DNA of 51,244 nucleotides from Candidatus Margulisiibacteriota bacterium (GTDB taxonomy: Bacteria > Margulisbacteria > WOR-1 > CAVSGV01 > JBHPDX01): positions 1-51,244 of the forward strand of contig JBHPDX010000003.1 in the NCBI GenBank assembly GCA_042577445.1, written 5' to 3'. A model generated the notes under the pieces. That model was not told the DNA's origin. It ran no database searches and saw only the letters and a list, made by a program, of their open reading frames with translations. Position numbers and translations under genes: made by a program. Within the stretch, counting starts at the first letter, position 1. Each line of letters starts with the position of its first letter. Shown in pieces: positions 13,009 to 36,460 of the stretch.

Positions 13009-13047
13009 AAGCTGGCTTTCCTTTACTGGGAAGCCAGCTTATTTTTT
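13009..13047. terminator. Bidirectional intrinsic terminator between rpoD and the convergent orphan
   Basis: AAGCTGGCTTTCC-TTTACT-GGGAAGCCAGCTT with flanking A and T runs. Confidence 0.75.
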
Positions 13048-14172
13048 ATCTCGGGGGGGGTAATACTGATGTATCTTGATCCTCCAATATTTCCACACCC
13101 ACTCTCTCACACCCCTAAACGTCATAATATCTATATCGCGTATCCTCTTCAAAACTCTTCTGATCTTATTGATATCCTTTATCTTCAAGGATTCGAACGC
13201 CTTTTGGTTATTCCTTTTGTAAAATGAGATCATAATGTCGGACAATTCTTTATAATTGGCTTTATCCGCTACTTCGGCCAATTTCCATGGAGGCAACCCG
13301 TCGATAAGCAATTCGTATCCTGCATTATCAAGCTCCGGAAACATCTCCAAACATCTGCCTGCATTCACGGTAAGCAGGAACTTTGCAATAGAGGCCGGAT
13401 AAGTGCCCCGCGCAGCGCCAAATAATTGAATAGCATCATTCACACTTATCATTCTGAGCAGTTCATAAGTATTGACCATGCTTAATGAGAAGAACAAGTT
13501 AAACCGATTGATAAGTTTCAAGTCTTTAAAGAAATCTCCGCGCTGGTCCATGTTCATGGACTCATAGAAATCGTTGCAGTATCCGTTGTTACCGCTCTTA
13601 AATAAAGCAAGAAAAAGCGCAACATGCCCCCTGCGATCGGAAGTTGTAATTAATACTCTTCGCCCGTCAGCATCCAACGACCTATATAAGGACAAGCGTC
13701 CGCTATGATAAATAGAATGGAACATGTTGTCCCGGCCTGCCTGCGATAACCCAATGAACAAAGCCGCTCTTTCCTTGGTCTTTAATGCCCAAAATACTGC
13801 AAGTCTATCCTTATCGGTCAACCTTCCCCAGGCCCTCTCAAACTCCCACCCTTTTTTTACTGCAATAAAACAGTTAATAGAAGCAATTCTATTATCAGCA
13901 TTAAATAATATTTTCTTGATCCGGAGGGCTATTGGCGCTATTTGTTTACCTGTTAATCCCTTTTCCTCTAAAATGCTAACACTGTTTCTTACAGAAGGGT
14001 TCTCATGATATATGCGTTTAAGCTCTTCAATATCCACTCTTCCCGTAAGAGCGGTGACCACCCTGCGGTCCTTGGCGATATTTGGGCCAAGCACCTCAGC
14101 CACACCTTTATTATGGCCGAAGATCAGCCTGTGCGGAATATTGGCTTTTATTGCTGACATGAAATTACTCAT
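13039..14172 (-). CDS. Orphan protein with ~12-aa helical repeats (MgtE-N-like solenoid)
   Basis: 377-aa ORF with periodic L-x4-R-x2-(L/V/F)-F units (LTDKDRLAVFWA/LKTKERAALFIG/LSQAGRDNMFHS); no signal peptide. Confidence 0.7.
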   Translation of the reverse strand: MSNFMSAIKANIPHRLIFGHNKGVAEVLGPNIAKDRRVVTALTGRVDIEELKRIYHENPSVRNSVSILEEKGLTGKQIAPIALRIKKILFNADNRIASINCFIAVKKGWEFERAWGRLTDKDRLAVFWALKTKERAALFIGLSQAGRDNMFHSIYHSGRLSLYRSLDADGRRVLITTSDRRGHVALFLALFKSGNNGYCNDFYESMNMDQRGDFFKDLKLINRFNLFFSLSMVNTYELLRMISVNDAIQLFGAARGTYPASIAKFLLTVNAGRCLEMFPELDNAGYELLIDGLPPWKLAEVADKANYKELSDIMISFYKRNNQKAFESLKIKDINKIRRVLKRIRDIDIMTFRGVREWVWKYWRIKIHQYYPPRDKK

Positions 14173-14182
14173 AGTTAACTGT

Positions 14183-14210
14183 ATTTCGGCATTTTTGGAT
14201 GATAATTTCA
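14183..14210 (-). promoter_or_regulatory. sigma28/FliA-like promoter motif (copy 1)
   Basis: Minus strand TGAAA-N15-GCCGAAAT, ending 10 nt before ATG 14172. Confidence 0.6.
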
Positions 14211-14233
14211 GTAAATATGAGGCAGAATGAGGG

Positions 14234-15070
14234 TTATTTTCTCAGGTTTCTCTGGGTAAAGATGCTGTCCGGAAGATCCAGGCCGAATTGGACCTCATCT
14301 ATGATCATTTCCGTCAGGGAATCCTTGCGAAGAAGGTTACTCATCGTGAAATAAACAGGGTAATACCTTTTGCCATATAATTTGATATTACTTAGGGTCA
14401 TGAGCTTAAGCTTCTTTCCGGACTTGGCGAAAAGTTCTTCTTTAACCGGCACAAATGTTCCTTTATCGACCCATATCTTTCTTTTATAATATGTGACTTC
14501 TTTTACTTTGGCTACAAGCTCGATCACATAGCAGTCATACTTGGTCTTGACCGTTTTCCTGCCTTCCGGATGGGTCAATGTGATCGTTTCTTCGCCAACC
14601 AGCTTTGCATTATACTTTTTATCAAGTTCAGAGCTTTCCAGGGCATCTTCGTAGCTGAAATCAGAACCCATCATGGACTGGCGCAACATATGGCCTGCAA
14701 TCTTAATGATCTTTTCGACCGAGGGCATGTATATCCACATATTATCGTCGATCTTAAGGTATTTAACTCCTTCATCCCGAGCTGGATATGTGAATTCAGA
14801 ATAAGACTTATCGCGCCCTTTTGAATAAGATATCATCTTTTTTGTCCTTATATCGTCTCTCACATGAATAACCATTCTGCTTTCCATTTTGGCGGAATCA
14901 TACGTCATGTTATCATCGATCTTATCAAGTATCTGCTGGCCCGTCATTGCAAAAGCAAAGTTAAAAAGTAAAAAGTTAAAACCACAGATCAAAAGCAAAA
15001 GACATATGATATATGCGAAGTACGCCTTAGTTTTGACCTTTTCCCTTTGATTTTTGAGTTTCTTGATCAT
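14234..15070 (-). CDS. Outer-membrane lipoprotein-sorting (LolA-like) protein
   Basis: Hydrophobic N-terminal signal, F.YPAR..G.KYL, WIYMPS, SMMGSDFSYED; last gene of the ABC operon. Confidence 0.85.
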   Translation of the reverse strand: MIKKLKNQREKVKTKAYFAYIICLLLLICGFNFLLFNFAFAMTGQQILDKIDDNMTYDSAKMESRMVIHVRDDIRTKKMISYSKGRDKSYSEFTYPARDEGVKYLKIDDNMWIYMPSVEKIIKIAGHMLRQSMMGSDFSYEDALESSELDKKYNAKLVGEETITLTHPEGRKTVKTKYDCYVIELVAKVKEVTYYKRKIWVDKGTFVPVKEELFAKSGKKLKLMTLSNIKLYGKRYYPVYFTMSNLLRKDSLTEMIIDEVQFGLDLPDSIFTQRNLRK

Positions 15071-16302
15071 ATTGTCCTTAATGCATCAGTTGGTTCCATT
15101 TTTGATGCCCTGATCGCCGGCGGGATTGCAGCCACGACCGAAAATAAAATACCCATGCAAAAACCAAAGAAGATTATCCCCCAGCTGAATACGGCACGGT
15201 ATACATAAGATAGTGGCAGATTGATCGTGCCCATCTGCTCGAATGTCGCCGTAAAATCAATACCCTCAACTGCAAGATAATAAGCTACACCTGAGCCCCA
15301 GACCGCGCCGATAAAACTAGCAATGGTCCCGATAAGCAGGGCTTCGAACAGGACCACTCCCATAACCTGACGGTCCTTCATGCCCAATGCTTTCATCATG
15401 CCGATCTCTTTGGTCCGCTCCAGTACCGCCATGTACATTGTGTTCAATATAGTAAAGCTGGCAAGAAAAAGGACCAAGAAATATATGCCGCCATAAACAT
15501 TTTTTGCGATCGTCATATAGAAATACAAGATGCCTTCATCCAGCCAGGCCCTGGCTATATATTGATCCGGATAAGCCTGCTCCAACCCTGTTTGGATCTC
15601 TTTAGCCACTCTCGAGGCCATACTCTTATTCTTAACAAAAACAAATATCTCGGTCACCCTGCCATCCAGATCAAGCAGCTGCTGCGCCTTATCCAAGGGC
15701 ATATAAAAAGTCGTCTTGTCAACGCTCTGAACTCCATAGCTATAGATCCCGACTATTTTCAGGTTCATGGCAGTGATCGAACCATACGCGGTCTGGGTCA
15801 CAACTGTCAGTGTGTCGCCAAGTTTAAGCCCCAGATCCCGGGCCATCTGGACGCCGATATTCATCTCTTCACGTCCCGCTTTTATCATCCTTCCTTCAAC
15901 GATCTTCTGATCAAGGTGGGAGATCTTGCTTTCGCTCTCTGGAACTATACCAACACCGAACACCGGTTTATTATTCCCTTTGTATTCCAGCAGAACGCCG
16001 AATTTTATCCTGCCCACGGTCAGCGTTACGTTCGGATCCTTTGCAGCCACTTTCTCTACATCTTTATAATCCGCAATATTGGCCTCCAGGGGCAGCATTC
16101 TTTCGCGCTTAACATACTCTTTATTGAGAATGCGGACATGACCGTAGTTCAAACGGATCACGTTATCGAACATATCATCCATGACCCCTGTTATAAGGGA
16201 CCAGAGATAGACCGCTATCATTACCGCGACAGCTATCGACAGCCCGGTCAAAACTGAACGGCGCTTATTGCGAAAAATATTCCTTAAAGCGATCTTGAAC
16301 AT
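15067..16302 (-). CDS. LolC/E-FtsX family ABC permease
   Basis: ALRNIFRNKRRS, periplasmic domain, ILNTMYMAVLERTKEIGMMKALG, PTDALR. Confidence 0.92.
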   Translation of the reverse strand: MFKIALRNIFRNKRRSVLTGLSIAVAVMIAVYLWSLITGVMDDMFDNVIRLNYGHVRILNKEYVKRERMLPLEANIADYKDVEKVAAKDPNVTLTVGRIKFGVLLEYKGNNKPVFGVGIVPESESKISHLDQKIVEGRMIKAGREEMNIGVQMARDLGLKLGDTLTVVTQTAYGSITAMNLKIVGIYSYGVQSVDKTTFYMPLDKAQQLLDLDGRVTEIFVFVKNKSMASRVAKEIQTGLEQAYPDQYIARAWLDEGILYFYMTIAKNVYGGIYFLVLFLASFTILNTMYMAVLERTKEIGMMKALGMKDRQVMGVVLFEALLIGTIASFIGAVWGSGVAYYLAVEGIDFTATFEQMGTINLPLSYVYRAVFSWGIIFFGFCMGILFSVVAAIPPAIRASKMEPTDALRTI

Positions 16303-17529
16303 TTATGCTTTCCTCAGTGCCTCGGTCGGCTCCATTTTTGCGGCCACTCGGGCCGGATATATACTGGTCAGGGCGGATATCACGATACCGGCGATAAAAG
16401 CGGTCACGATCATGCCCGGATTCCAGACACCGCGCATTACACCTGTAACTCTGTAACCGATATCGCCTATATCTCTCATCAAATAACCCCAGTTGATCCC
16501 ATATTTAACATAAAATATATTTAATATTATACCGATCAAACAACCTGTGATGCTCCCCAGGACACCGATCATAGCCCCTTCCATCACAAAAAGCTTGATG
16601 ATCTGTCTGCGCCTCATGCCCATTGCCGCCATCATGCCGATCTCCCGCGTCCGCTCGAACGCCGCCAAAAGGATAGTGTTGCTGATGCCGATCAAAGCAA
16701 TAACGAAAATGCTGAACAATATAAATGAAGTCCCTCCGCGTTTTGCCTGGGCAATGGCGATCACGTCCGCTGCAAGGTCCTTCCAGGTGGCAACTTCAAG
16801 ACCGGGAACCTCACCCGCCAGCCTGTCACGGAATGCCTGGACCATGGCAGGATCTTTAAGTTTAATATCTATTTCGGTTACACCCTTACCCATATCCAAT
16901 GACTCCTGCCCAAGTCCTAGCGGTATTACAACTGCGGCCCAATCGATCTTGGGATCTTCGGTCCTGAGTATGCCTTTAATGCGCAGGTCGATAGCCTGAT
17001 ATGTATCATATTTGGTCCGTGTAAGTATGGTCATATAATCCCCCACATCCACCCCAAAATCATCTGCCAGTCCTTCTCCCAGGAGCATGGCCTCTTCATT
17101 GCCTTTTAAGAACTCGCCTTTATGCAGGGCTTGTTGTAAAAGAAAAACAGACTGGTCATCATTTGGATTGACCGCTATCCCCACGGCCGCATATTGGTCA
17201 ATACCATCCGAGAGCATGACGCGGAAATTAATTCGTGAAGTTACGCCGGCAACATCCGGATCCATTGCGACTTTCTTAATGATGGAAGCCGGATCATCGA
17301 TCGATTTGTCCAGAGGGAGATTCTCTTCGTCTTCGCGATAGTCCCGGTCAAATATCTTGATATGGCCTGTCTCGTAATTAATGATCCTATCAAATGAATC
17401 CTGGTCAATGCCGGTAAGCATCGAGTCCACTATAATGAGCAACGCCAGTCCCAGGGCGATCGCCAGGAATGTCAGGAAAGTCCTGGTAAAATGCCTGAAT
17501 ATATTCCTAAATGCCAGCCGAATATACAA
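16303..17529 (-). CDS. LolC/E-FtsX family ABC permease
   Basis: AFRNIFRH..RT, NTILLAAFERTREIGMMAAMG, EPTEALR. Confidence 0.92.
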   Translation of the reverse strand: MYIRLAFRNIFRHFTRTFLTFLAIALGLALLIIVDSMLTGIDQDSFDRIINYETGHIKIFDRDYREDEENLPLDKSIDDPASIIKKVAMDPDVAGVTSRINFRVMLSDGIDQYAAVGIAVNPNDDQSVFLLQQALHKGEFLKGNEEAMLLGEGLADDFGVDVGDYMTILTRTKYDTYQAIDLRIKGILRTEDPKIDWAAVVIPLGLGQESLDMGKGVTEIDIKLKDPAMVQAFRDRLAGEVPGLEVATWKDLAADVIAIAQAKRGGTSFILFSIFVIALIGISNTILLAAFERTREIGMMAAMGMRRRQIIKLFVMEGAMIGVLGSITGCLIGIILNIFYVKYGINWGYLMRDIGDIGYRVTGVMRGVWNPGMIVTAFIAGIVISALTSIYPARVAAKMEPTEALRKA

Positions 17530-17532
17530 TTA

Positions 17533-18219
17533 TTAATCCCTCTCGTCTGATTGTATTTGACCGTCATGTACCTTGACCAAACGACGAGCATAATCCATGA
17601 CCATCGGATCATGGGTTGAGAAAATAAATGTGGTCTTGGTCTTCTTGTTTATCTTCTCCATCAATTTAAGGATATCTTCGCCTGTTTTTGAGTCAAGATT
17701 TGCTGTTGGCTCGTCGGCAAGAACGACTTTTGGACCTTTAACAAGAGCCCTGGCTATTGCGACCCTTTGCTGCTGGCCTCCGCTTATCTCGCCAGGCTTT
17801 CTACCTGCAAGATCATCTATAGCGACATCTTTAAGCGCTTTCATGACAAGCTCTTTTCTTTCTTTTTGATCATGCTTCTTAAGAAGGATCAGGGGAAATT
17901 CAACGTTCTCGAATGCAGTGAAAACCGGGATAAGATTAAAGGTCTGGAAAACAAAGCCAAGATTAAAATTTCTGACATCGGCAAGCTGATTTGGGGACAT
18001 TTTGGAGATATCTGAGTCGCCGACAAATACTCTCCCTGATGTTGGCCTATCCAGACAGCCGAAGAGGTTAAGCATTGTGGTTTTCCCTGAACCGGAAGGG
18101 CCTGCTATTGAGAGGAAATCCCCTTCTTCAACTGAAAGCGTTACACCTCGTAGAGCCGGAACCTCGATCTTTCCAACTTTGTAGATTTTGGTAGCTTTTT
18201 CCATGCGGACAATAGGCAT
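17533..18219 (-). CDS. LolD-like ABC ATP-binding protein
   Basis: GPSGSGKT, ISGGQQQRVAIARAL, LADEPTANLD, STHD. Confidence 0.95.
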   Translation of the reverse strand: MPIVRMEKATKIYKVGKIEVPALRGVTLSVEEGDFLSIAGPSGSGKTTMLNLFGCLDRPTSGRVFVGDSDISKMSPNQLADVRNFNLGFVFQTFNLIPVFTAFENVEFPLILLKKHDQKERKELVMKALKDVAIDDLAGRKPGEISGGQQQRVAIARALVKGPKVVLADEPTANLDSKTGEDILKLMEKINKKTKTTFIFSTHDPMVMDYARRLVKVHDGQIQSDERD

Positions 18220-18254
18220 TATTTATTCCCCCTTTAATCGGTTCACACAGAAGA

Positions 18255-18330
18255 TGGTAGCCCCAACGGGATTCGAACCCGTGCTGCCGGCTTGAAAAGC
18301 CGGTGTCCTAGGCCTCTAGACGATGGGGCC
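18255..18330 (-). tRNA. tRNA-Glu(TTC)
   Basis: GGCCCCATCGTCTAGAGGCCTAGGAC..CCGGC-TTTTCAA-GCCGG..TTCGAAT..ACCA. Confidence 0.96.
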
Positions 18331-18410
18331 ATATCGCATTCAGATTATCAAAATACTGGGTTATTTTCAATAAAAACTTGCCAGCCGTAGTCCTGGTTAT
18401 GGACAAAGGC

Positions 18411-18487
18411 TGGTCGGAGCGGCGGGATTCGAACCCACGGCCTCCTGCTCCCGAAGCAGGCGCTCTACCAAGCTGAGCCACGCTCCG
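18411..18487 (-). tRNA. tRNA-Pro(CGG)
   Basis: CGGAGCG..CCTGC-TTCGGGA-GCAGG..TTCGAAT..CGCTCCGACCA. Confidence 0.96.
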
Positions 18488-18507
18488 CTCTGCACTCCAA
18501 ATAAAAA

Positions 18508-18579
18508 TGGGCCCAGTAGGATTCGAACCTACAACCAATCGGTTATGAGCCGATTGCTCTACCATTGAGCTATGGGCCC
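18508..18579 (-). tRNA. tRNA with CAT anticodon, probably tRNA-Ile2 (lysidine type)
   Basis: GGGCCCATAGCTCAATGGTAGAGC..ATCGG-CTCATAA-CCGAT; paired 1:72 and no GGG/CCC anticodon stem, so not the initiator; Ile2 versus elongator Met is an inference. Confidence 0.85.
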
Positions 18580-18583
18580 TCGC

Positions 18584-18751
18584 TTATTTGTCCTCAGGCC
18601 ACTGTTCCATATCCGGACCGAATTTCTTCTTCTTTTCAAGCAGTTTTGACCGGAACTTACTCACGCTTTCGGAAAGATTGGAAAGCGTACCTGTAAATTC
18701 CTCAACTTTTTTGAGCAAAGTATCAACATCGTTCAGGTTTTCTTCTCCCAT
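18584..18751 (-). CDS. 55-aa small helical hypothetical protein (below the ORF track cutoff)
   Basis: MGEENLNDVDTLLKKVEEFTGTLSNLSESVSKFRSKLLEKKKKFGPDMEQWPEDK; SD-like GGCGGTGA upstream. Confidence 0.7.
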   Translation of the reverse strand: MGEENLNDVDTLLKKVEEFTGTLSNLSESVSKFRSKLLEKKKKFGPDMEQWPEDK

Positions 18752-18877
18752 ATACAATCACCGCCTAAATATGACAGGGCTTGATTATAGCAAAAATACT
18801 TTTTAAATCCAACTTCGAGTTATCCGCTTGAAGAATGGCGATTTTATAGGTAAAATCAGGGAGTTTTTCACTGCAAT

Positions 18878-18952
18878 GGGCGGTTATTTCAGCGGTAGAA
18901 GGCTTCCCTTACAAGGAAGAGGTCACTGGTTCGAATCCAGTACCGCCCACCA
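18878..18952 (+). tRNA. tRNA-Val(TAC)
   Basis: GGGCGGT..CTTCC-CTTACAA-GGAAG..TTCGAAT..ACCGCCCACCA. Confidence 0.95.
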
Positions 18953-18964
18953 TATACCCATCAA

Positions 18965-19171
18965 CTAAGGCCTGTTCTTGAACAATTGGATCCCAAGTTT
19001 AATGCCTATGATCACAAGAACAATTGATATAACTATTATATAGTCTTTTACAAAGTTTGGAAAATAAGCTCCAATTATCACGCCTATAAGAAGGGCTCCT
19101 GTTTTTAAGAATTGCGCGTCCATAAAGTTCATATGCTTTAAATTATTCTCAAGCCATTTGATCAGGTACAT
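18965..19171 (-). CDS. Small two-TM membrane protein
   Basis: 68 aa, two hydrophobic helices, SD GGAGGTG, directly downstream of the Na/Pi gene. Confidence 0.75.
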   Translation of the reverse strand: MYLIKWLENNLKHMNFMDAQFLKTGALLIGVIIGAYFPNFVKDYIIVISIVLVIIGIKLGIQLFKNRP

Positions 19172-19186
19172 ATTTCCACCTCCGAG

Positions 19187-20845: not shown

Positions 20846-20864
20846 CTAAGACCTCTTAAAAAGT

Positions 20865-20905
20865 AAAAAAGCACTTCCCTTATCAAGTAAGGAAAAGTGC
20901 CTTTT
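20865..20905 (-). terminator. Terminator hairpin inside the Na/Pi cotransporter 5' leader
   Basis: Minus strand GCACTTTTCCTTA-CTTGA-TAAGGGAAGTGC-TTTTTT, about 20 nt before the ATG. Confidence 0.7.
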
Positions 20906-20967
20906 GCCAACATTTCGCAACTTCTGCATCTATCTCCGCACAACTGTTTTTAATTCCACCGATTTGA

Positions 20968-20996: not shown

Positions 20997-21065
20997 TACG
21001 TTTTTGAATATAAGATTGTGTATATTTATTAGCTGGATCAAAAAGATCGCAATTAGTATTTTCAA

Positions 21066-27357: not shown

Positions 27358-27385
27358 TGAAATTAAAGCAAAAATATGACGATTA
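27358..27385 (+). promoter_or_regulatory. sigma28/FliA-like promoter motif (copy 2)
   Basis: TGAAA-N15-GACGATTA. Confidence 0.55.
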
Positions 27386-27404: not shown

Positions 27405-28259
27405 ATGGGTTTTCAGGGTGTTAGTCAGCTTCAAACTTTATTTTTAACCGCCAGACAGACTGGTGCGCATTTTTCTTTTGGGAATAACGCCCTTCCACGC
27501 TTTAATGACTTTACAAAAGTACAGTCCCTTACTTTTTTAAAAAGTACTCCGCTGGCCTCATCGATTTTTGAAAAAGCATCAATAACCCTAAGTAAGATCC
27601 AGCAGAAAAACCTGGGAGGGCCGTTCCCCGCCTCCTTCAACCTGGATATGGAAAAATTGACCCTGGTATCTTTAGATAAGCAGGAAATACCGCGCGAAAG
27701 GATAAATACTTTTATAAATGATATGGACCACGATAGAGCGGTAAGGTTTCTAAGAAAATTGGGCGCCTTGCAAAAGAATTATAAAAACCCAATAATAAAC
27801 TTTTTAGGCAAGCGCTTCATGAGCTGGATGCCAAGCGATATAGGCAGATTCATGGATAAATATTTCGAGGAGCTTATCTGCAACACAAGAAGGGGCGAAG
27901 TGTCCATACTGTTCAACAGGATAGATATAAAGGGGTCTGCAAGTCTGACAGAAGCGGTTAAAAAACATAAACTGGAAACGGACGGGCGTATATTACACTT
28001 ATTCATGGTGGCATTAGAAGCGGTTGCAGATGTGGCCCCCTATGATCTTGGGGTATCTTACAAGCTTAATCTCGCAAGGCTTACGCCTTTATGGCTGACA
28101 AAGCAGAATATAAATATCGATGAAGTCGACGAAACTATTGAAAGTTCAGATCACGACAGAATGATCAAATTCCTGGAAAAGATCAGGGCGCTGCGAATCA
28201 AATCAATAAGAGAACCTGTCAAAAGAAAGAAACAAATGGAACTCTTCTCGAAAGACTAA
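27405..28259 (+). CDS. Orphan protein with an internal ~47-aa duplication
   Basis: 284-aa ORF, SD AGGGGG; SFNLDMEKLT..DHDRAVRFLRKLGAL versus SYKLNLARLT..DHDRMIKFLEKIRAL. Confidence 0.75.
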   Translation: MGFQGVSQLQTLFLTARQTGAHFSFGNNALPRFNDFTKVQSLTFLKSTPLASSIFEKASITLSKIQQKNLGGPFPASFNLDMEKLTLVSLDKQEIPRERINTFINDMDHDRAVRFLRKLGALQKNYKNPIINFLGKRFMSWMPSDIGRFMDKYFEELICNTRRGEVSILFNRIDIKGSASLTEAVKKHKLETDGRILHLFMVALEAVADVAPYDLGVSYKLNLARLTPLWLTKQNINIDEVDETIESSDHDRMIKFLEKIRALRIKSIREPVKRKKQMELFSKD

Positions 28260-28269
28260 AGAAGGAAGC

Positions 28270-30489
28270 CTACTTTATCCCCAGTGATTTCAGCATATCG
28301 CTGGAAGCTATTATCTTACGGGGCTTATTGTCATTCTCAAGCGCGGAAACGATACCAGCAGCTTCCATCTCATCCATTAATCTCGCGGCGCGGTTATAGC
28401 CTATTCTAAGCCTTCTCTGCAGATGCGATGTTGAAGCCTGTCCGCTGCCGATTATTATCTTTACGGCTTCGGCAAAAAGGTCATCCCTGTTCCCTCCGTC
28501 GCCATTGCCTCCGCCTCCCGCCTCAACCATGGCTTCTAAGTCCATGATCTCTTCTGAATACTCGGGCTGGGCCTGATTTTTTATGAATTCCGTCACTTTT
28601 TCGATCTCGTCATCAGACACGAATGCACCCTGCAACCTTGTAGGCTTCATCGCGCCGACAGGATGATAAAGCATGTCGCCGCGGCCGAGAAGCTTTTCCG
28701 CGCCAGACATATCAAGGATAACGCGGGAGTCAACCTGCGTCGCCACTGCAAAAGCTATCCTTGACGGGATATTCGCCTTGATCAAACCCGTGATTACATC
28801 GACCGAAGGCCTCTGCGTTGCTACAACAAGATGTATCCCGGTAGCTCTTGCCAGCTGCGCTATCCTGCATATGGTCGTTTCAACTTCATTTGCAGCCACC
28901 ATCATAAGGTCCGCAAGTTCGTCTATGATCACGATAATATACGGCATTCTTTCATGGGCATATTCTTCCGTTTCAAACTTTCTCGAAGCGGGCTGAGCTT
29001 TACCCTGGTCGATCTTTTTATTGAACGCCGTAATATTCCTTACTCCTGCGGCATAGAAGGTCTTATACCTTCTGTCCATCTCCTTGATAACCCAGCCCTT
29101 AAGCATTTGCGCTGCTTTTTTGGGATCTGTGACAACAGGAGCAAGTAAATGGGGTATATCGTTATAATGAGTGAACTCAACCATCTTGGGATCGATCATA
29201 AGGAACTTGACCTCATCAGGCCTTGCCCGGAGCAGCAGGCTCATAAGAAGCGAGTTGATACAGACGCTCTTACCGGATCCTGTGGTACCAGCGATAAGAA
29301 GGTGAGGCATTTTTGACAGGTCGCCGAAAACAGGAGATCCGGAAAGGTTCTTTCCCAGACCAATAAATAACTTGGAGGCATTAGTATCGAATTCTTTCGT
29401 ATGGGCGATCTCCCCGAGTTTTACGGCAAGCGTTGCAGGATTGGGAACTTCTATTCCGACGGCCGCCTTGCCCGGAATAGGCGCCTCAATCCTGACCCCC
29501 TGGGAAGCAAGCCCGAGGGAAATATCATCAGCGAGGTTCGCGATCTTGCTGACCTTGACGCCCGGATCAGGCTGGACCTCATACCTGGTCACCGCCGGCC
29601 CCTGGTGCACCGCAACGACCTTTGCCCCAACGCCGAAAGATTTGAGCGTCTCTTCAAGAGCTTTCTTCCTTATTTCCACTGTTTCCTTCAGCTTTTCAGC
29701 TCTCTGCTTTTCACGCTCCGTCGGCTGGTCAAGAAGGTCCAGTGAAGGAAGTTGATATTTGCCTATTCGCTTCGTTGTTCTTGGCCTCGAGATAGGTTTG
29801 GCCTTTGGGGATCTTAATTCGATCTTCTTTTGCGGCTTGTCTTCTTCTTCGAACTCATCCTTTATCGCATTGATCTCCTTGATAATAGGCATCATGGAAG
29901 GAATGGATCTGTGGCCGTCATCGGCTATAGACTTCTTTTTCCGCTTCATCCTTTTCCCGCTGAAAATATAATCCCATAATTTCGACAACATATTCGCTAA
30001 TGTAATATTGAATATAAGGACAATAGATATTATAAAGGCTGAAGAAAGAACGATATAAGCCCCAACGTTGCCGACAGCTCCTTCCAACCCGTTCTTTACA
30101 ATATATCCTATAACTCCCCCCGCTCCTGAAGTGGAGGAGATGATCTTGTTGAAATATTTATCCGAATATAGCTGAGCTTGAGCAACAATAGTAAAGAACA
30201 AGAGAAATATGCCGGCGACCTGATAAGTAAGGAATATGGCCTGCTGGCGGAGCATTATAACGATGCCGAAGAACGCCAGGAAGTAAGGTAAAAGGTAAAC
30301 GCCGACGCCGACGGCCGGCTTCAAGAATTGGTCTACCATATAAAAACCCACGACGCCGGTCGAAGTGGTCACATTGGACATAAAAATAAAGAGGGCTAAC
30401 GATATTAAAGCGATGCCGATAATATCCTGCTTAAACCTGGCGCTGGAAGGTGACTTTTTCTTTTTTTTCTTCTTCTTTTTTTTAGGCAA
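28270..30489 (-). CDS. ftsK: DNA translocase FtsK/SpoIIIE
   Basis: N-terminal 4TM, GPAVTRYE, PHLLIAGTTGSGKS, IDELADLM, ATQRPSVDV, gamma domain LQRRLRIGYNRAARL. Confidence 0.97.
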   Translation of the reverse strand: MPKKKKKKKKKKSPSSARFKQDIIGIALISLALFIFMSNVTTSTGVVGFYMVDQFLKPAVGVGVYLLPYFLAFFGIVIMLRQQAIFLTYQVAGIFLLFFTIVAQAQLYSDKYFNKIISSTSGAGGVIGYIVKNGLEGAVGNVGAYIVLSSAFIISIVLIFNITLANMLSKLWDYIFSGKRMKRKKKSIADDGHRSIPSMMPIIKEINAIKDEFEEEDKPQKKIELRSPKAKPISRPRTTKRIGKYQLPSLDLLDQPTEREKQRAEKLKETVEIRKKALEETLKSFGVGAKVVAVHQGPAVTRYEVQPDPGVKVSKIANLADDISLGLASQGVRIEAPIPGKAAVGIEVPNPATLAVKLGEIAHTKEFDTNASKLFIGLGKNLSGSPVFGDLSKMPHLLIAGTTGSGKSVCINSLLMSLLLRARPDEVKFLMIDPKMVEFTHYNDIPHLLAPVVTDPKKAAQMLKGWVIKEMDRRYKTFYAAGVRNITAFNKKIDQGKAQPASRKFETEEYAHERMPYIIVIIDELADLMMVAANEVETTICRIAQLARATGIHLVVATQRPSVDVITGLIKANIPSRIAFAVATQVDSRVILDMSGAEKLLGRGDMLYHPVGAMKPTRLQGAFVSDDEIEKVTEFIKNQAQPEYSEEIMDLEAMVEAGGGGNGDGGNRDDLFAEAVKIIIGSGQASTSHLQRRLRIGYNRAARLMDEMEAAGIVSALENDNKPRKIIASSDMLKSLGIK

Positions 30490-30574
30490 GTTGCGGCACC
30501 TCTAAGTAAAAAAAGTATAACATAATCGATATATGAGTTCAATTGAAGCGCTTATGGATCAAGCAAAAGAGCTG

Positions 30575-31405
30575 TTAGAAGAAGGATTTCAGGACAACAA
30601 AAGATCCGACAATGAAGCAGTAATACGCAAAGATGGATATCTTTTTCTTTTTTATCAGGCCTATGAAGAATCCGATAGCAAAATATCCCGAGATGAACGC
30701 GGACACAACGCCAAGCAATAAAGGAACGGCTCCTACCCCTTTAAAACTCAATTCCATAATATCCTTCAGCTCATAAATAGTTGCACCGACTATCGCCGGG
30801 ATCGAAAGAAGAAAGGCGAACCTTGCAGCCAGAGGCCTTTTTAATCCTCTTAGAAGGGATGCGGAAACCGTCAGACCGGACCTTGATAAGCCGGGCGCAA
30901 CGGCCATCCCCTGGAACACGCCGATATATATCGCGTCCAGCATGCTCATTTCCTTTTCAGACTTTATGGACCTTGATATCCTCTCAGCGTGCATAATGAT
31001 TATGCCTGTAATTATAAGAAAGCATCCGACCGCAAGAAGTGAATTAAATAACATTTCGAACCAATCCTTGAACGAAAGGGCTATTATAACGGTCGGGATA
31101 GTGCCGACGATTATGAGGGTAGCGATCTTAAAATAAGGGTCGTCATAGGTTTCGCTGATCTTTTTCTTTTTAAGGATCAGTCCGAACAATCCTCCGAAGA
31201 AATTCTTGGTCAACAGGATCATATCTTTAAAGAAATAAACAAGTACTGCAAGTAGCGTCGCAAAGTGCACCACGGTAATGAAAGCGAGGTCCGGTTTAAG
31301 CCCTAAAATATTGGAAGTGATAACAAGATGCCCGGAGCTGGAAACAGGAAGGAATTCTGTAAGCCCCTGAACAATGCCTAAAAGAATACTTTCAAATATG
31401 CTCAA
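30575..31405 (-). CDS. uppP: Undecaprenyl-diphosphatase
   Basis: QGLTEFLPVSSSGH, PGLSRSG, FAFLLSIPA. Confidence 0.96.
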   Translation of the reverse strand: MSIFESILLGIVQGLTEFLPVSSSGHLVITSNILGLKPDLAFITVVHFATLLAVLVYFFKDMILLTKNFFGGLFGLILKKKKISETYDDPYFKIATLIIVGTIPTVIIALSFKDWFEMLFNSLLAVGCFLIITGIIIMHAERISRSIKSEKEMSMLDAIYIGVFQGMAVAPGLSRSGLTVSASLLRGLKRPLAARFAFLLSIPAIVGATIYELKDIMELSFKGVGAVPLLLGVVSAFISGYFAIGFFIGLIKKKKISIFAYYCFIVGSFVVLKSFF

Positions 31406-31407
31406 GA

Positions 31408-32298
31408 TTACCCTTTCTTACCCCATTTGGTAAGAAGAACAAGGACGGGACTGGCAACAAAGATGGAAGAATAAGCGCCTGCGGTGAATCCTATAAAAAG
31501 AGTTAAAGCAAAATTCTTGATCGTCGCGCCGCCAAAAAGAAGAAGAGCGGCATTCATAAAAAGGACCGTCAAAACAGTATTGATCGATCTGGCGAAAGTC
31601 TGGTTCACGCTTTCATTCACGATATCTTTAAGCGGTCTCTTTGCCGAACCTGCTTTCGCGAGGTTCTCCCTGATCCTGTCAAAGATGACTATCGTATCAT
31701 TAATAGAGTAACCAAGTACCGTAAGTATCGCCGCTATAAAAGGCGTATCAACAGGACGCCATAATATCGCGATAAACCCGACCGTTATTATCGCGTCATG
31801 TGAAAGAGCAATGATAGCTGCCACCGCATACTTGAACTCGAACCGGAAGGCTACATATATAAGGATGCCTATCATAGCGACCATAAGCGCCCAGAAAGCC
31901 TGGCGCCTCAGCTCCGCGCCTATGACCGGCCCGATGGTGTCCGCCTCCAGAAGCACCGTCCCCGGGAATTTTTCCTTAATATCATTGACTATGTCTTCTC
32001 TCTCTTTTGTCGGAAGCGGCTCGGTCTTTATGATAAGATCATACCCTCCGCTCCTCTGTATCACGGCGTTCGCCCTATTATACTTACCTAATATCTCTCT
32101 TACTTCCTCAAGAGAGACCAGCTCTTGAAGCCTCAAGTTAAGGGTCGTGCCTCCCGTAAAGTCGATGCCAAAGTTCATCGGGCTGCCCTTGAACATGCCG
32201 TTCGAAATAAGACCGAACAGGCCGATAACAATGAATATCGCCGATATAATGAACCAGAGCCTTGTTTTGCCTATAATATCTATTGCGCCTAGCTTCAT
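31408..32298 (-). CDS. secF: Protein translocase subunit SecF
   Basis: GIDFTGG, IGPVIG.EL, HDAII, GYSINDTIVIFDRIRE. Confidence 0.96.
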   Translation of the reverse strand: MKLGAIDIIGKTRLWFIISAIFIVIGLFGLISNGMFKGSPMNFGIDFTGGTTLNLRLQELVSLEEVREILGKYNRANAVIQRSGGYDLIIKTEPLPTKEREDIVNDIKEKFPGTVLLEADTIGPVIGAELRRQAFWALMVAMIGILIYVAFRFEFKYAVAAIIALSHDAIITVGFIAILWRPVDTPFIAAILTVLGYSINDTIVIFDRIRENLAKAGSAKRPLKDIVNESVNQTFARSINTVLTVLFMNAALLLFGGATIKNFALTLFIGFTAGAYSSIFVASPVLVLLTKWGKKG

Positions 32299-33623
32299 TT
32301 TAATACCATCTTGCTTTCTGTTTTAAGCATTCCGGAGCCGGCTGCCATCTCCATCATCATTCTTGTCACAAGTATCGCCGTTAACATAGAGACAACGATA
32401 CCAATGGAGAGCGTTACCGCAAAACCTTTTATAGTGCCGGTACCCAGCCAGAACAATGTTGCCGCAGCGATAAGTGTCGTGATATTCGCGTCAAGTATCG
32501 TGGTGAGAGCGCGCTTAAAGCTTGTTTCGATCGCAAGCCTTATTGTTTTTCCCAGCCTTAGCTCCTCTTTCAGCCTTTCAAAAATGATGATATTGGCGTC
32601 CACAGCCATGCCTATAGAAAGAAGGAATCCGGCGATCCCGGGAAGCGTAAGCGTTGTATGGATCAGTGCCAGGACCGCAAGAACGACCAAACAATAAATT
32701 GTAAGGGCTATGTCCGCCAGGAGTCCCGGCAACCTATAGTATGCCACCATGAAGAATAAAATGAACGCGAGCCCTATGATGCCCGCAACCTTGCTCTTAT
32801 CTATCGAATCTTTGCCGAGCGTCGGGCCGATTATCTTGTTCTCGACGATCTCAACGGGAACAGGAAGCGCGCCGGCCTTGAGTTTTATCACCAGGTCCTG
32901 CACTTCTTCAATGGTAAAGTCTCCGGAGATCTGGGCTTTTCCGCTTGGTATAGGCTCTCTTACGTTGGGAGCGGAAATTATCTTTTTATCCAGAAGAATG
33001 GCAATGGGCTTGCCGACAGATCTGGTCGTAACGCTTGCGAATCCCTTTGCGCCGTCAGGCGTGAATTCAATGTCCACGACCGGATTGCCGTACTGATCGA
33101 TCCCCGGCCACGAACCCTTAAGGTCTGCACCGGTAAGTATCGTCTTTTTTAAGATGATAGGCCTCTGCCGGATAAGCTTTGTCCCTCGATATTCCTTTAC
33201 TATTTCCAAATAAGCGTCTTTCCCGTAAAACTCTCTCACCTTTTCAGGAGGAAGGACCGATTCGTCTCCGGGCGCCCACTCCGCTTCCTTGAATTCAAGA
33301 AGCGCCGTTTCCCCGATCAGCCTTATAGCTCTTTCGGGATCTTTCACGCCGGGAAGCTCAATGATGATCTGGGACCGGCCCTTTCGGGTAATGAGAGGCT
33401 CTGTAACGCCGAGGGCATCTATCCTGTTCCTTATAACAGCCAGGGCTCCGGCAACCGCGTCCTCGGTCACTTTTACGGACTTTGTCTCTCTGGCTTCAAG
33501 TACAAGCCTGGTACCGCCCTGAAGGTCAAGGCCAAGGGTGATCGGCATCTGGTATATTATGAATACCGATATCCCGATGACCGCCGCTATTATTAAGAAT
33601 CTTAACTGGTTTGTGCTCTTCAT
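32295..33623 (-). CDS. secD: Protein translocase subunit SecD
   Basis: LGLDLQGG, RNRIDALGVTEP, GALP, GPTLG, GMAVDANIIIFER. Confidence 0.96.
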   Translation of the reverse strand: MKSTNQLRFLIIAAVIGISVFIIYQMPITLGLDLQGGTRLVLEARETKSVKVTEDAVAGALAVIRNRIDALGVTEPLITRKGRSQIIIELPGVKDPERAIRLIGETALLEFKEAEWAPGDESVLPPEKVREFYGKDAYLEIVKEYRGTKLIRQRPIILKKTILTGADLKGSWPGIDQYGNPVVDIEFTPDGAKGFASVTTRSVGKPIAILLDKKIISAPNVREPIPSGKAQISGDFTIEEVQDLVIKLKAGALPVPVEIVENKIIGPTLGKDSIDKSKVAGIIGLAFILFFMVAYYRLPGLLADIALTIYCLVVLAVLALIHTTLTLPGIAGFLLSIGMAVDANIIIFERLKEELRLGKTIRLAIETSFKRALTTILDANITTLIAAATLFWLGTGTIKGFAVTLSIGIVVSMLTAILVTRMMMEMAAGSGMLKTESKMVLK

Positions 33624-33655
33624 AAAAAACAGAGGGATTATAACATAAATAACAA

Positions 33656-33722
33656 AGAGATGGGAGATAAGAAATCTGAGATGCGATCATATATCACATC
33701 TCCCATCTCTGATCTCGGATCT
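33656..33722. repeat. Inverted heptamer-repeat hairpin
   Basis: AGAGATG GGAGATA AGAAATC TGAGATG ... CACATCT CCCATCT CTGATCT CGGATCT; perfect 13-bp IR 33656-33668/33698-33710. Confidence 0.7.
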
Positions 33723-34817
33723 CTATATTAGAAGATGTTTATTCCCGACATATACATGCCTCAAGCCGGCTTTCTTGGCTGCCTTTAAGGCAGTCTCGGC
33801 AAGCCTCTTGGACGTAGGCGGAACATCATACATATAGAATTGCGGATAAAAGGCAAGTAAACAATACGGGATATTGGGGTCTATTTTAGCTATGAACTTT
33901 GCGATATGGGATATCTCCTGAACATCTATATATCCCGGGACCAGAAGAGTTGAAGCGACAAGAAGCGGCGGCTGCCTGCGGCTCTTCCCCATTTTGGCCA
34001 CAGCTTTAAAATTGTTGAATGTCCACTTATTCGATACACCAGTCAGCGCATAATGCAGGTGATCATCGTAAGCCTTCAGATCTATCTTGACCGTCCCGCC
34101 GGACATAAGGGCCATTTCCGCGAACTCCTTCATTATATCCTCGTTCATCGCACCGTTGGTCTCAAAGCATACGCGGAAGATCTGCCCTTTTTTCTTCTCA
34201 CGCATTATCTTTGCCGCTTTCAGCGCGTGATATATCTGCGGCGTCGGATCTCCCCCGAAAAAGCACACGCAGGGAGTCCTTTCATCGACCTGAGAAGCAA
34301 GCTCCTCCGGCGTTACCACATGCGGCTGGGTCAGATAATCCCTAAAATGCCAGTTCTGGCAGAAGAGGCAGTCGAACGAACAGGCTCCGTAAAAGACCGC
34401 CAGGCTCTTGAAGCCGGTCTCGGGACCGCTCTTATTCGCGTATTTTGGATAACCGGCGCCGGTACATCCCGCACATACGCCGTCCGCCACGCAGTTCGTA
34501 GGCAGCTTTTCAAAGTAATAATTAAGTGTAGCTCCGCCAAAGTCGACGAGCTTTCCGCCCTCATTTTTCCTTACGCCGCAGTATCCCCTCTTCCCTCTGC
34601 CGATCCTGCATTGATTTATACAGATATCGCACGGGATGCCGGCTTTATCCTTGGGGGGTTTTGCCGGAAGATGATGCTCCAGCCGGCAGCGTTCATGCGT
34701 CGCTTCAATGATCTTCCTTGCTTTATGGAATTTAGTCCTTATGCAGTCCAGGCAAACGCCCAGTTCTTTTGATATTATCTCTTTTTTTTCTCCGCAGACC
34801 TTACAGTTGCTATCCAT
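33723..34817 (-). CDS. Radical SAM enzyme (AmmeMemoRadiSam / PFL-activase-like)
   Basis: CSFDCLFCQN (CxxxCxxC), CDICINQC..GYCGVR, FGGDP, ETNG, IDLKA. Confidence 0.88.
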   Translation of the reverse strand: MDSNCKVCGEKKEIISKELGVCLDCIRTKFHKARKIIEATHERCRLEHHLPAKPPKDKAGIPCDICINQCRIGRGKRGYCGVRKNEGGKLVDFGGATLNYYFEKLPTNCVADGVCAGCTGAGYPKYANKSGPETGFKSLAVFYGACSFDCLFCQNWHFRDYLTQPHVVTPEELASQVDERTPCVCFFGGDPTPQIYHALKAAKIMREKKKGQIFRVCFETNGAMNEDIMKEFAEMALMSGGTVKIDLKAYDDHLHYALTGVSNKWTFNNFKAVAKMGKSRRQPPLLVASTLLVPGYIDVQEISHIAKFIAKIDPNIPYCLLAFYPQFYMYDVPPTSKRLAETALKAAKKAGLRHVYVGNKHLLI

Positions 34818-34844
34818 ATAGAGCGAATATTATCACCTAAAAAG

Positions 34845-34872
34845 TGAAATTTCATTAAGTTTCTGCCGATAA
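34845..34872 (+). promoter_or_regulatory. sigma28/FliA-like promoter motif (copy 3, perfect -10)
   Basis: TGAAA-N15-GCCGATAA. Confidence 0.7.
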
Positions 34873-34911
34873 ACAAGGGTCTGATGATTTTTTTAAAAGG
34901 AGAAAATAATA

Positions 34912-35520
34912 ATGATAAGACCTGCAGGATTACTGGCATCAAAAATAACCGTAAGCAAAATATGCGGTACGATAAGCAGCAAGGTCCCCGGGCCTGTAAA
35001 GGAGTTCCAGGAAGCATATCCGAATCTTGTAGTGCTTGCTTCACAAAAGAGATTGGACAGCCTGAAAAATTCTCATTTCTTAGGTATGCAGGGAACAAAG
35101 CTTCGAAAATATCTAGCTGCTGTGGTCAAGAAGCATGAATGGAGTAATGGAGACGGCGTCTATGAAAAAATGACAAAAGACGGCCTGACATTCGGCCAAT
35201 TCTACATGGCTACAGCGGTCGAAGGGAAACAGGAGCTTGTGACCTTTTTTGCTGAAAGGCATTTAATAGAAACGCTGGAAGCTGAATTCCGAAGGAACAA
35301 ACGCCCGATCATGATCAATGTTATATACCAGGGAAAGCAAAGAATGGTCATATTCAAAAGGTTCAAGACCTCTTATCACGACTGGAGAGAAACATATGAA
35401 GAACAAGCGCTGGCTGCAAAGCCCACTTCTACAAGATGGAAAAGCGAAGCCCCTGGCAGGCGCCATCCTTTTGTTCACCCTGGCATGCAAATAAAGGGTA
35501 CCTCTGTTAAAAAGGGTTAG
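34912..35520 (+). CDS. Orphan protein, paralog A
   Basis: 202 aa, SD AAGGAG; aligns by eye with 35810..36460. Confidence 0.8.
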   Translation: MIRPAGLLASKITVSKICGTISSKVPGPVKEFQEAYPNLVVLASQKRLDSLKNSHFLGMQGTKLRKYLAAVVKKHEWSNGDGVYEKMTKDGLTFGQFYMATAVEGKQELVTFFAERHLIETLEAEFRRNKRPIMINVIYQGKQRMVIFKRFKTSYHDWRETYEEQALAAKPTSTRWKSEAPGRRHPFVHPGMQIKGTSVKKG

Positions 35521-35526
35521 TTCCCG

Positions 35527-35718
35527 TTATTTATGCAGGTTAATGAAATTCCCGATCGAGCGGTCATAAGTTCTTTCAGCTTCCTTGGAAAAATAACAGG
35601 CGGGAAGCTCGTCCCTTTGAAGATGGTACTCGATACAATCGCAGCATTTGTGTTTTCTTGAGCAGGGCTCGTAGGTACAGTTGCACCTCTTTTTGTTGAT
35701 ATTTTGCTGGCATTCCAT
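35527..35718 (-). CDS. Small Cys-rich protein (DUF6485-like)
   Basis: [37 protein letters not shown]. Confidence 0.8.
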
Positions 35719-35742
35719 ACATATAAATATATCACAAAAAAG

Positions 35743-35770
35743 TGAAATTTCACCTGACTTTTGGCGATAA
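35743..35770 (+). promoter_or_regulatory. sigma28/FliA-like promoter motif (copy 4)
   Basis: TGAAA-N15-GGCGATAA. Confidence 0.65.
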
Positions 35771-35809
35771 ATAAACTGAAGTTTGATAATTTTTTAAGGA
35801 GGAATTTTT

Positions 35810-36460
35810 ATGACAGGTGGAGCAGGAATCGGTAAGGTCCCAGGAAGACATATTGGACATAAAAAAATGGCCAGGCAAATCAAGACCGGTCAAATAACAC
35901 AAGGAGGTCCTTTTACCACTAACGGGATGTCGGACGTTAGGTCTTTTCTAAAAGCGCATTCTGATTTTACGGTATTCATGTCGCAAAGGAAACTAGAAGG
36001 CCTCTGCACAAAAGTAGTAGATATCGAAGGACAAAAATCCAGCTTGATATCCTTATATCTTGATGCGGTAGCTGGTTACGATTGGGATAACCAGCAAAAT
36101 CCTATCTATATTGCAATGCACAGGCATAAGCTTCATTTTGGTTTTATGCACGTTGTTATAAGTGCAAAAAGAGGACCTGAAAGAGTCACCTTTCTTGCGG
36201 AAGACCGCCTAATAAACCAATTAAAGCCCGGGCAAGACATTAGGGTCATGAAGGACGGGATAATGAAAAATGCCTCCTTTGTTGAGATCGAGAAGACCGG
36301 ACATGATTGGTGGATCGTTCACCGCGAGACCGTCCAAATGGGCCAAAGCCGTATTTCAATAGAGGTACAAAGACAGCAAGAAGAATTAGACAGAAGAGCA
36401 GCTAGAAGAGAAGAAGAGGAAGAGATTTTCCAGATTAGTATTAAAAAAACAGAAGGTTAA
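35810..36460 (+). CDS. Orphan protein, paralog B
   Basis: 216 aa, SD AAGGAGG; shares SQ.(K/R)L, YL.AV, W.N, L.FG, VTF.AE..LI and HDW with paralog A. Confidence 0.8.
   Translation: MTGGAGIGKVPGRHIGHKKMARQIKTGQITQGGPFTTNGMSDVRSFLKAHSDFTVFMSQRKLEGLCTKVVDIEGQKSSLISLYLDAVAGYDWDNQQNPIYIAMHRHKLHFGFMHVVISAKRGPERVTFLAEDRLINQLKPGQDIRVMKDGIMKNASFVEIEKTGHDWWIVHRETVQMGQSRISIEVQRQQEELDRRAARREEEEEIFQISIKKTEG

Follow-up and report, generated by a model that had tools for sequence, protein, structure and literature searches.

Four orphan genes and a shared promoter motif

The window examined here, the whole 51,244-nucleotide (nt) stretch of contig JBHPDX010000003.1 from a Candidatus Margulisiibacteriota bacterium, is contig C3 of an assembly (G000) of 1.22 Mb in 71 contigs that is 68.8% complete. 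Its genes are mostly housekeeping genes, including dnaG-rpoD, secDF, ftsK, tgt, queA, ABC transporter genes, and parts of a TonB system, and among them stand four open reading frames (ORFs), P0001 to P0004, that a first-pass annotation made from the letters alone had described as motif-driven orphans and had read as secreted effectors of a type III or flagellar export system. The observations in that annotation were partly confirmed and its interpretation is partly supported; we treat the four proteins here as members of a putative sigma-28-type regulon and as candidate cargo of a flagellar type III apparatus. Reading of the translations established that all four ORFs are real and lie as follows, with lengths in amino acids (aa) and with acid-free denoting the absence of aspartate and glutamate (D/E).

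13039..14172, minus strand: P0001, 377 aa; leader residues 1-25 acid-free, first D/E at residue 26
27405..28259, plus strand: P0002, 284 aa; leader residues 1-34 acid-free, first D/E at residue 35
34912..35520, plus strand: P0003, 202 aa; leader residues 1-30 acid-free, first D/E at residue 31; upstream Shine-Dalgarno (SD) sequence AAGGAG
35810..36460, plus strand: P0004, 216 aa; first D/E at residue 42

As first proposed, none of the four contains a Sec-like or transmembrane segment: the maximum 19-residue mean hydropathy on the Kyte-Doolittle scale is 1.14, 1.38, 0.96, and 0.74 for P0001 to P0004, and the maximum 15-residue hydropathy within the first 45 residues (0.73, 0.64, 1.23, and 0.07 in the same order) gives no indication of a Sec or Tat signal. 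All four are basic overall, with K+R exceeding D+E.

The pattern TGAAAT-N14-GNCGAxA lies upstream of each of the four ORFs, and the window holds a fifth copy; scores are those of a position weight matrix (PWM) built from the genome.

11878..11905, plus strand: fifth motif copy, upstream of an rpoD-like gene (11934-12986), score 29
14183..14210, minus strand: P0001 promoter motif, TGAAAT-N14-GCCGAAAT, score 26
27358..27385, plus strand: P0002 promoter motif, TGAAAT-N14-GACGATTA, score 27
34845..34872, plus strand: P0003 promoter motif, TGAAAT-N14-GCCGATAA, score 33
35743..35770, plus strand: P0004 promoter motif, TGAAAT-N14-GGCGATAA, score 40

In P0001 the -10 element ends 10 nt ahead of the ATG at 14172, so that little or no leader would remain on the mRNA. 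The copy at the rpoD-like gene means that the promoter is not confined to orphans; this gene, which lies downstream of dnaG, encodes a primary-type sigma factor, and its sigma-28-type motif may represent a feed-forward link from the alternative to the housekeeping sigma factor.

The matrix converges on GTGAAATTTT...TTTGTCGATAAAT; its information content peaks at TGAAAT and CGATA and is highest at the latter. It finds 84 to 86 sites in the 68.8%-complete genome, compared to 1 to 3 in a reversed-sequence control, and nearly all of them are located 10 to 80 nt ahead of an ORF with an SD sequence, so the description of the four genes as motif driven was borne out. The consensus recognized by sigma-28 (FliA) is TAAA-N15-GCCGATAA; in these terms the motif reads GAAA-N15-GNCGATAA, with an xAAA -35 element, a GCCGATAA-like -10 element, and a spacing of 15 nt, and it therefore has the geometry and the -10 core of FliA class 3 promoters. 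No tRNA gene has the motif, and the promoters of these genes are TTGACA-N17-TATAAT-like; a housekeeping promoter was rejected on this ground, and the motif is taken to mark an alternative sigma regulon because the tRNA promoters are canonical. The link to sigma-28 drawn in the first-pass annotation thus stands on promoter geometry, on the FliA-like sigma genes that are found beside flagellar genes (see below), and on the separate tRNA promoters, and the predicted membership of P0001 to P0004 in a sigma-28-type regulon is well supported. A further likeness to known sigma-28 systems is that early structural genes are without the motif: there is no exact-pattern match in the rod/FliF cluster (80-100 kb) of G001, a relative with a closed genome. 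The differences are that the -35 element is TGAAAT and not TAAAG, that 43 of 71 targets have no Pfam family, and that no flagellin or flgM late gene was found in the window's own genome for the motif to drive. The sigma-28 regulon of E. coli comprises a few dozen sites, and the 84 to 86 sites found here thus amount to a regulon several-fold larger.

The distribution of the motif was examined in a class sample of 31 genomes that share the window's order or class, G000 among them, and in a phylum sample, an even draw of 81 genomes of which 28 belong to the window's class and 53 to other classes. The exact pattern TGAAAT-N16-CGATA occurs 28 to 98 times per genome in all 31 class members, against 0 to 2 times in a backwards control. 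In the phylum sample, 29 to 107 sites were counted in the 28 genomes of the class, and in the 53 others the motif was usually rare (median, 9), with at least 32 sites in 8 genomes; expansion of the regulon thus characterizes the window's class together with a few other families.

Outside the window, the scan of G000 yielded 71 motif-driven ORFs, those shorter than 60 aa or with a PWM score below 19 having been excluded beforehand. The 43 that lack a Pfam family (E<=1e-4) are accompanied by GGDEF and HD-GYP proteins, a patatin-like phospholipase, a DOT1-like domain, an HPr fusion, and several S-adenosylmethionine (SAM)-methyltransferases and nucleotidyltransferases, many of these with N-terminal extensions, as well as by two subtilases, an SLH S-layer protein, and large beta-helix/fn3 proteins with Sec-type signals. 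The promoter thus marks a broad programme that extends beyond candidate type III cargo. In several of the motif-driven enzymes (loci L010, L030, L060, and L064 of G000), the extension ahead of the Pfam domain is long, the domain starting at residue 110 in the patatin, 125 in the HPr protein, 88 in the DOT1-like protein, and 112 in a methyltransferase.

Acid-free leaders and the families that carry them

The acid-free N termini that had been reported for the four proteins are present in all of them and recur in the regulon. We compared the 69 regulon proteins (of 76) without a hydrophobic N terminus with 647 background proteins (of 824), the starts of the background genes having been called by a simple SD heuristic. 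Acidic residues account for 3.6% of regulon positions 2 to 11 and 5.4% of positions 12 to 21, against 11 to 12% in the background; the median position of the first acidic residue is 23 in the regulon and 7 in the background (p=7e-13). No D/E occurs within the first 12 residues of 72% of regulon proteins, compared to 29% of the background, or within the first 20 residues of 57%, compared to 11% (10.7% of the 647), and past residue 40 the two sets are alike (12.5% and 12.1%). The composition of the leaders differs from that first described. Richness in S/G/T/K/I held for P0003 and P0004 (fractions of 0.57 and 0.59) but not for P0001 and P0002 (0.36 and 0.26; background, 0.38), and as a trait of the regulon it was not upheld (0.369 against 0.379; p=0.24); the actual signal is the depletion of D/E together with enrichment of Gly, Pro, Asn, and Ala, and Lys and Ile are depleted.

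Regulon and background do not differ in base composition over their first 60 nt. Each of the four D/E codons is 2- to 3.4-fold rarer in the regulon, and codon position 2 is where the two sets diverge; a signal in the nucleotides or the mRNA was rejected accordingly. The reading frame bears on a further explanation, that certain ORFs, or the 5' ends given to them, are artefacts of annotation and the leaders translated 5' untranslated regions. The start of P0001, which has no SD sequence and which the public gene call begins at M5 to give 373 aa, would fit such an explanation, as would the failure to detect any homolog of P0001 and the existence of only a distant syntenic homolog of P0002, in the relative G003. 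The regulon starts as a whole run counter to it, since an SD-like 4-mer precedes 63 of 69 and 60 of 69 are ATG, and D/E residues make up 4.5% of the leaders in frame, compared to 8.5% when shuffled and 7.8 to 7.9% in off-frame translations. Moreover, the leader of P0004 is conserved in a 74%-identical ortholog, P0003 and P0004 belong to a family of eight members, and P0002 does have its syntenic homolog. Translated untranslated regions were therefore rejected as a source of the leaders, artefacts of this kind among the four genes are very improbable, and the signature is protein level because the depletion is in frame and at codon position 2 and the starts are SD-like.

P0003 and P0004 are weak paralogs (BLASTP E=0.008; 23% identity) that find each other reciprocally in phmmer searches (E values of 9e-8 and 5e-8), and nothing else matched among the 5,344 ORFs of the genome. 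The claim that their colinear similarity starts only past the leader was confirmed. A profile made from P0003, P0004, and P0005 retrieved six more proteins of 167 to 223 aa (E values of 2e-25 to 1e-8) from 1.84 billion representatives, and in five of the six the match begins at positions 33 to 43; in the family alignment every member shows an unalignable leader followed by a conserved core. At least the first 22 residues of every leader are free of D/E, and Gly, Ser, Thr, Pro, Lys, and Arg are abundant in the leaders; a member from a metagenome contig carries TGAAATTTCCCCGCATTTATGACGAAA, a copy of the motif with one mismatch, about 40 nt ahead of its ATG. The 74%-identical homolog of P0004 bears the source label 'Candidatus Margulisiibacteriota bacterium'. 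P0004 was not found in 30 relatives, and no locus related to P0010 was found among the genome contigs. An AlphaFold2 model of P0004 made from a three-sequence alignment has a mean predicted local distance difference test (pLDDT) score of 67.9; residues 1 to 34 score about 35, an alpha/beta core at residues 38 to 161 scores mostly 80 to 89 per 10-residue block with dips to 67 to 72, and a long C-terminal helix spans residues 167 to 214. Foldseek returned no match to this model in the PDB at E<=0.001, the best being a double Tudor domain at E of about 0.2, and the best Z in a wide VIA-align comparison was 3.4 (Tudor, 51 residues), the helix-only rows being uninformative.

P0002 contains an internal duplication (residues ~76-130 against ~217-272; 36% identity; E=8e-11). 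A search of 5.8 billion proteins retrieved only P0002 itself, and a distant, fast-evolving homolog stands beside ftsK in G003, in the same position as in the window (phmmer E=2.2e-11; 25% identity); its alignment starts at residue 54, and the leader of P0002 is thus lineage specific. The Atlas model of P0002 is poor (pLDDT, 0.49) and gave no usable match.

P0001 likewise retrieved only itself among 5.8 billion proteins and was not found in 30 relatives. Residues 263 to 342 match Pfam MgtE_N above the gathering score (30.9 bits against a cut-off of 25.9; E=4.3e-7), as in MgtE_N/FliG-like proteins, and an ESM-Atlas model aligns over residues 53 to 376 with MgtE_N-domain proteins (template modeling score, 0.56); a single-sequence AlphaFold2 model was unusable (pLDDT, 39.8). 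By these models P0001 is a predicted all-helical MgtE_N/FliG-like repeat protein. It differs from the MgtE_N/FliG-like proteins in that Pfam finds neither a CBS pair nor the MgtE membrane domain, and it has no transmembrane-like segment. With these domains lacking and with no homolog in the 30 relatives, it is neither a Mg2+ transporter nor a conserved FliG. Residues 18 to 56 (VLG...VVTALTGRVDIE; 14005-14121) resemble residues ~27 to 64 of a 1,289-aa frame in another family of the class (G015, L081 1393-1692, minus strand) with 53% identity (E=0.004), a likeness that may reflect a short shared N-proximal module or chance. One finding named in the first-pass annotation as capable of overturning it, N termini that fold as components of known enzymes, was not made: P0001 enters its MgtE_N-like fold only at about residue 53, and residues 1 to 34 of P0004 remain below a pLDDT of 50.

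The order tgt, a conserved membrane protein of 201/209 aa, motif-driven orphans, secDF, further orphans, and ftsK recurs in G001 and G003. The orphans in these slots differ among the three genera and show no detectable similarity apart from the P0002 family, which indicates that the tgt-secDF and secF-ftsK slots are probable hot spots of rapid in-place orphan turnover. The slots compared were tgt/orf209-secDF and secF-ftsK at L117 (G003) and L116 (G001), set against 27405-37062 of the window. At 38309-42583, plus strand, three ORFs of 738, 441, and 191 aa without a Pfam family lie between tgt and queA; as tgt and queA are adjacent in G001 and G003, the trio is a lineage-specific insertion, and no PWM site was found within it. 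Elsewhere in G000, contig C40 carries two inverted tRNA-Met genes (4965-5038, plus strand; 6053-6126, minus strand) with identical upstream 90 nt, a pair that is either a recent inverted duplication or an assembly feature.

Flagellar genes and FliA-like sigma factors

The first-pass annotation had named the lack of any type III export apparatus as a finding that would overturn it, and a flagellar type III export gate is encoded in the genome. Contig C16 carries, in order, FliN, a FliO-sized ORF, FliP, FliQ, FliR, FlhB, FlhA, a 126-aa ORF, and a 193-aa sigma factor, and two rod proteins lie at the edge of contig C20 (C20:184-315 and 1011-1145). Flagellin, FlgM, FliF, and FliG_C were not found in G000, absences that say little because the assembly is 68.8% complete and the FliN contig begins at a contig edge; for the same assembly, FliH, FliI, and FliJ were seen solely in the relative G001. 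The closed genome of G001 has two flagellar clusters, and its FliG (L084 11722-12186; 154 aa) consists of the middle domain alone, with no C-domain.

G001 cluster 1: FliK-like, FlgF, FlgG, FlgA, FlgI, 245-aa FliA/WhiG-like sigma, FlgB, FlgC, FliE, FliF, 154-aa FliG, FliH, FliI, FliJ
G001 cluster 2: FliK, FlgD, 279-aa FlgE-like, FliM, FliN, FliO, FliP, FliQ, FliR, FlhB, FlhA, 126-aa ORF

In the class sample, family matches were distributed as follows.

FlhA: 29 of 31 class genomes
FliF: 29 of 31 class genomes
Flg_bbr_C rod domains: 31 of 31 class genomes, mostly 3 per genome
Flagellin_N: 1 of 31 class genomes (1 of 24 high-quality genomes)
FliG_C: 3 of 31 class genomes, in ~500-aa frames
MotA_N: 0 of 31 class genomes over the cut-off

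By gene content, the class thus keeps a predicted hook-basal body with its export gate, ATPase complex, length-control and switch proteins, and a FliA-like sigma factor, and no filament, stator, or torque domain was detected in it, matches to flagellin, FliG_C, and MotA_N being near absent. FlgM and FliS were found in none of five near-complete relatives, although small divergent proteins can escape these profiles. In a further relative, G026, one FliG_C frame stands beside a weak MotA_N match, and this pair may belong to a different system.

Across the phylum sample FlhA is present in 77 of 81 genomes and flagellin in 14. Two FlhA loci are found in 13 of the 14 flagellin-positive genomes, and flagellin-negative genomes have one, the apparent double FlhA of G026, G035, and G036 being split fragments of a single gene. 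These counts point to two distinct systems of flagellar type in the phylum, one near universal and flagellin-less, the other an optional canonical flagellum. Joint occurrence of motif and FlhA in the genomes of the phylum was considered as a further line of evidence and set aside as uninformative, FlhA being near universal.

The 193-aa sigma factor of G000, which comprises regions r2 and r4 and lies near flhA, has FliA/WhiG as its best specific NCBIfam match (71 bits), and the 245-aa sigma factor of G001, within flagellar cluster 1, matches the same family with 135 bits. Directly downstream of flhA in both genomes (G000, contig C16, L006 6011-7169; G001, L085 10508-10888) is a conserved 126-aa ORF of no family with its own sigma-28-type motif, followed in G000 by the FliA-like sigma gene; this ORF may encode a regulator or chaperone that has escaped recognition, for instance a FlgM-like factor.

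The term effector, if it is meant to denote proteins that a machine like the injectisome delivers into host cells, is unsupported. Orphan status and rapid turnover at syntenic slots do resemble features of effector repertoires, and a patatin-like phospholipase and a DOT1-like methyltransferase, both with N-terminal extensions, are members of the regulon. Nevertheless, the clusters hold flagellar rod, hook, and P-ring genes and not needle or translocon genes, and no host is known; around the G001 export genes only these flagellar genes were seen, and SctC, SctF, and a translocon were not searched for genome-wide. We consider injection into a host improbable.

A proposed filament-less export system and its possible cargo

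A lineage with no detectable flagellin, FlgM, or FliS that nevertheless has hook proteins, FliK, FlhB, and a FliA-like sigma factor may plausibly possess other late cargo. We suggest, with somewhat less than even confidence, that a flagellar type III apparatus without a filament exports the four lineage-restricted proteins as late substrates and that their acid-free leaders are the signal. In this scheme, the FliA-like sigma factor would read the TGAAAT-N14-GNCGAxA motif, the hook-basal body would be assembled and would switch to late export, and P0001 to P0004 would then pass through the flagellar gate; the retained FliK/FlhB switch and the FliA-like sigma factor would serve the expression and export of these proteins. 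The export signal would be the acid-free N-terminal 25 to 41 residues, which are probably disordered, as the low-confidence stretch in the model of P0004, and of that protein only, would imply.

Several observations weigh against this proposal. The motif also precedes genes for plainly cytoplasmic proteins (RpoD, a sigma-54 activator, and an RRM protein), and 7 of 76 motif-driven proteins have Sec-like hydrophobic N termini; with cytoplasmic and Sec-type members in the regulon, possession of the motif does not imply type III export. Among the listed proteins of the G001 flagellar clusters, mostly rod and hook components, 9 of 11 have an acidic residue by position 8, and the gate therefore does not demand the acid-free rule of known substrates. 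The first 27 motif-driven ORFs of G001 do not repeat the late first acidic residue, with a median at position 6 and 26% without D/E in the first 12; the trend is weaker there (D+E, 7.1% against 11.6% [p=0.001]; polar residues, 37.5% against 30% [p=0.003], both measured against the G000 background and not G001's own), so that the rule replicates weakly. Both FliA-like sigma factors fall below the NCBIfam cut-off of 189.6 bits, FlgM was found neither in G000 nor in the five relatives, FliS was not found in those relatives, and no other export chaperone was detected. Finally, disorder of the leader is predicted for P0004 alone, the models of P0001 and P0002 being too poor.

Much of this evidence would be expected if the proteins were cytoplasmic products of a large FliA-type regulon, with acid-free, Gly/Pro/Asn-rich leaders serving in regulated proteolysis, in binding of partners or nucleic acids, or in membrane association. 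Such a role is a substantial possibility, if short of a probable one. It is favoured by the RpoD, sigma-54 activator, and RRM members, by the SAM-methyltransferases, nucleotidyltransferases, and GGDEF and HD-GYP proteins, which belong to families that are not specific to secretion, and by the basic character of all four proteins; the true flagellar substrates of G001 are not acid-free and the signature is weak in that genome, and the MgtE_N/FliG-like fold of P0001 is usual in cytoplasmic proteins. A cytoplasmic role leaves unexplained, however, why the class as a whole keeps a gate, a hook, a FliK/FlhB switch, and a FliA-like sigma factor when no known late substrate is detected, and why unrelated regulon members share an N-terminal signature at the protein level.

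The leaders could also direct export by some other route, such as an unrecognised system or loading into vesicles, the promoter merely co-regulating a cell-surface programme. The S-layer protein, the two subtilases, and the beta-helix/fn3 proteins with Sec signals suggest an envelope or secretome programme served by several routes, and the rod and hook proteins do not follow the acid-free rule. The leaders are, however, without a hydrophobic core, no twin-arginine plus h-region signal is apparent on reading, and no alternative leader-dependent system was identified, none having been searched for. There is in our view only a small chance that this explanation is correct.

Export of the four proteins through the flagellar gate would have parallels in systems that are already known, namely flagellar secretion of nonflagellar proteins and basal bodies that lack a filament. 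A few cultured species are known to secrete nonflagellar proteins by way of flagellar type III gates. The Campylobacter jejuni flagellar type III secretion system (T3SS) is reported to export nonflagellar proteins by means of N-terminal signals (PMC2764114, PMC5223770). The proposal for the present lineage is the same in that nonflagellar proteins would leave by the flagellar export gate under the direction of an N-terminal sequence; it differs in that the flagellum of C. jejuni is complete, rotates, and contains flagellins, whereas here flagellin, FliG_C, and MotA_N (over the cut-off) are found in 1, 3, and 0 of 31 class genomes, and in that export is predicted. Lysobacter enzymogenes OH11 is reported to have kept a flagellar T3SS without a functional fliC and to secrete toxins in a FliI/FlhB-dependent manner (PMC7688988). 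It too is a nonflagellated bacterium that retains flagellar T3SS genes, but it is a single strain for which there is experimental support, whereas the pattern described here is class-wide, largely phylum-wide, and purely computational, and, unlike that of OH11, comes with a large sigma-28-type regulon that bears an N-terminal signature. Buchnera aphidicola is reported to have basal bodies without a filament, for which a role as transporters has been suggested (PMC8109811). Small genome size, retention of basal-body and type III export genes, and absence of the filament are common to Buchnera and the present lineage, which differs in also keeping hook, FlgD, and FliK genes. No report of a large sigma-28 regulon of orphans in Buchnera is known to us.

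What is possibly new is the combination of a class-wide, largely phylum-wide system without filament or stator, a FliA-type regulon of dozens to more than 100 promoters per genome, a predominance of fast-evolving orphans among the targets, and, in this genome, a shared leader signature. No description of this combination was found in the literature on Margulisbacteria, Termititenax, and flagellin-less uncultivated taxa, as represented mostly by titles and abstracts, and the main text of PMC6349859 contains none of the terms 'flagell', 'type III', or 'motil'.

In its widest form, the proposal would be that nearly the whole phylum keeps a filament-less, stator-less hook-basal body as a dedicated secretion machine and that, in the window's class, a FliA-type sigma factor drives dozens to more than 100 leader-tagged, fast-evolving substrates per genome, these four included, an exaptation parallel to, and independent of, the origin of the injectisome. 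We regard this extension as rather doubtful. Should the proteins prove to be cytoplasmic instead, an unusually large FliA-type regulon uncoupled from motility would still remain. If the proposal is true, a whole uncultivated lineage would keep the machine without filament or stator, the late-gene sigma factor would be the master switch of a rapidly turning-over secretome, and that secretome would be recognizable from sequence by its promoter and leader. Candidate secreted proteins in these genomes could then be listed from sequence, dozens of 'hypothetical' genes per genome would gain a functional handle, and the lineage would provide a natural analogue of the step from flagellum to injectisome.

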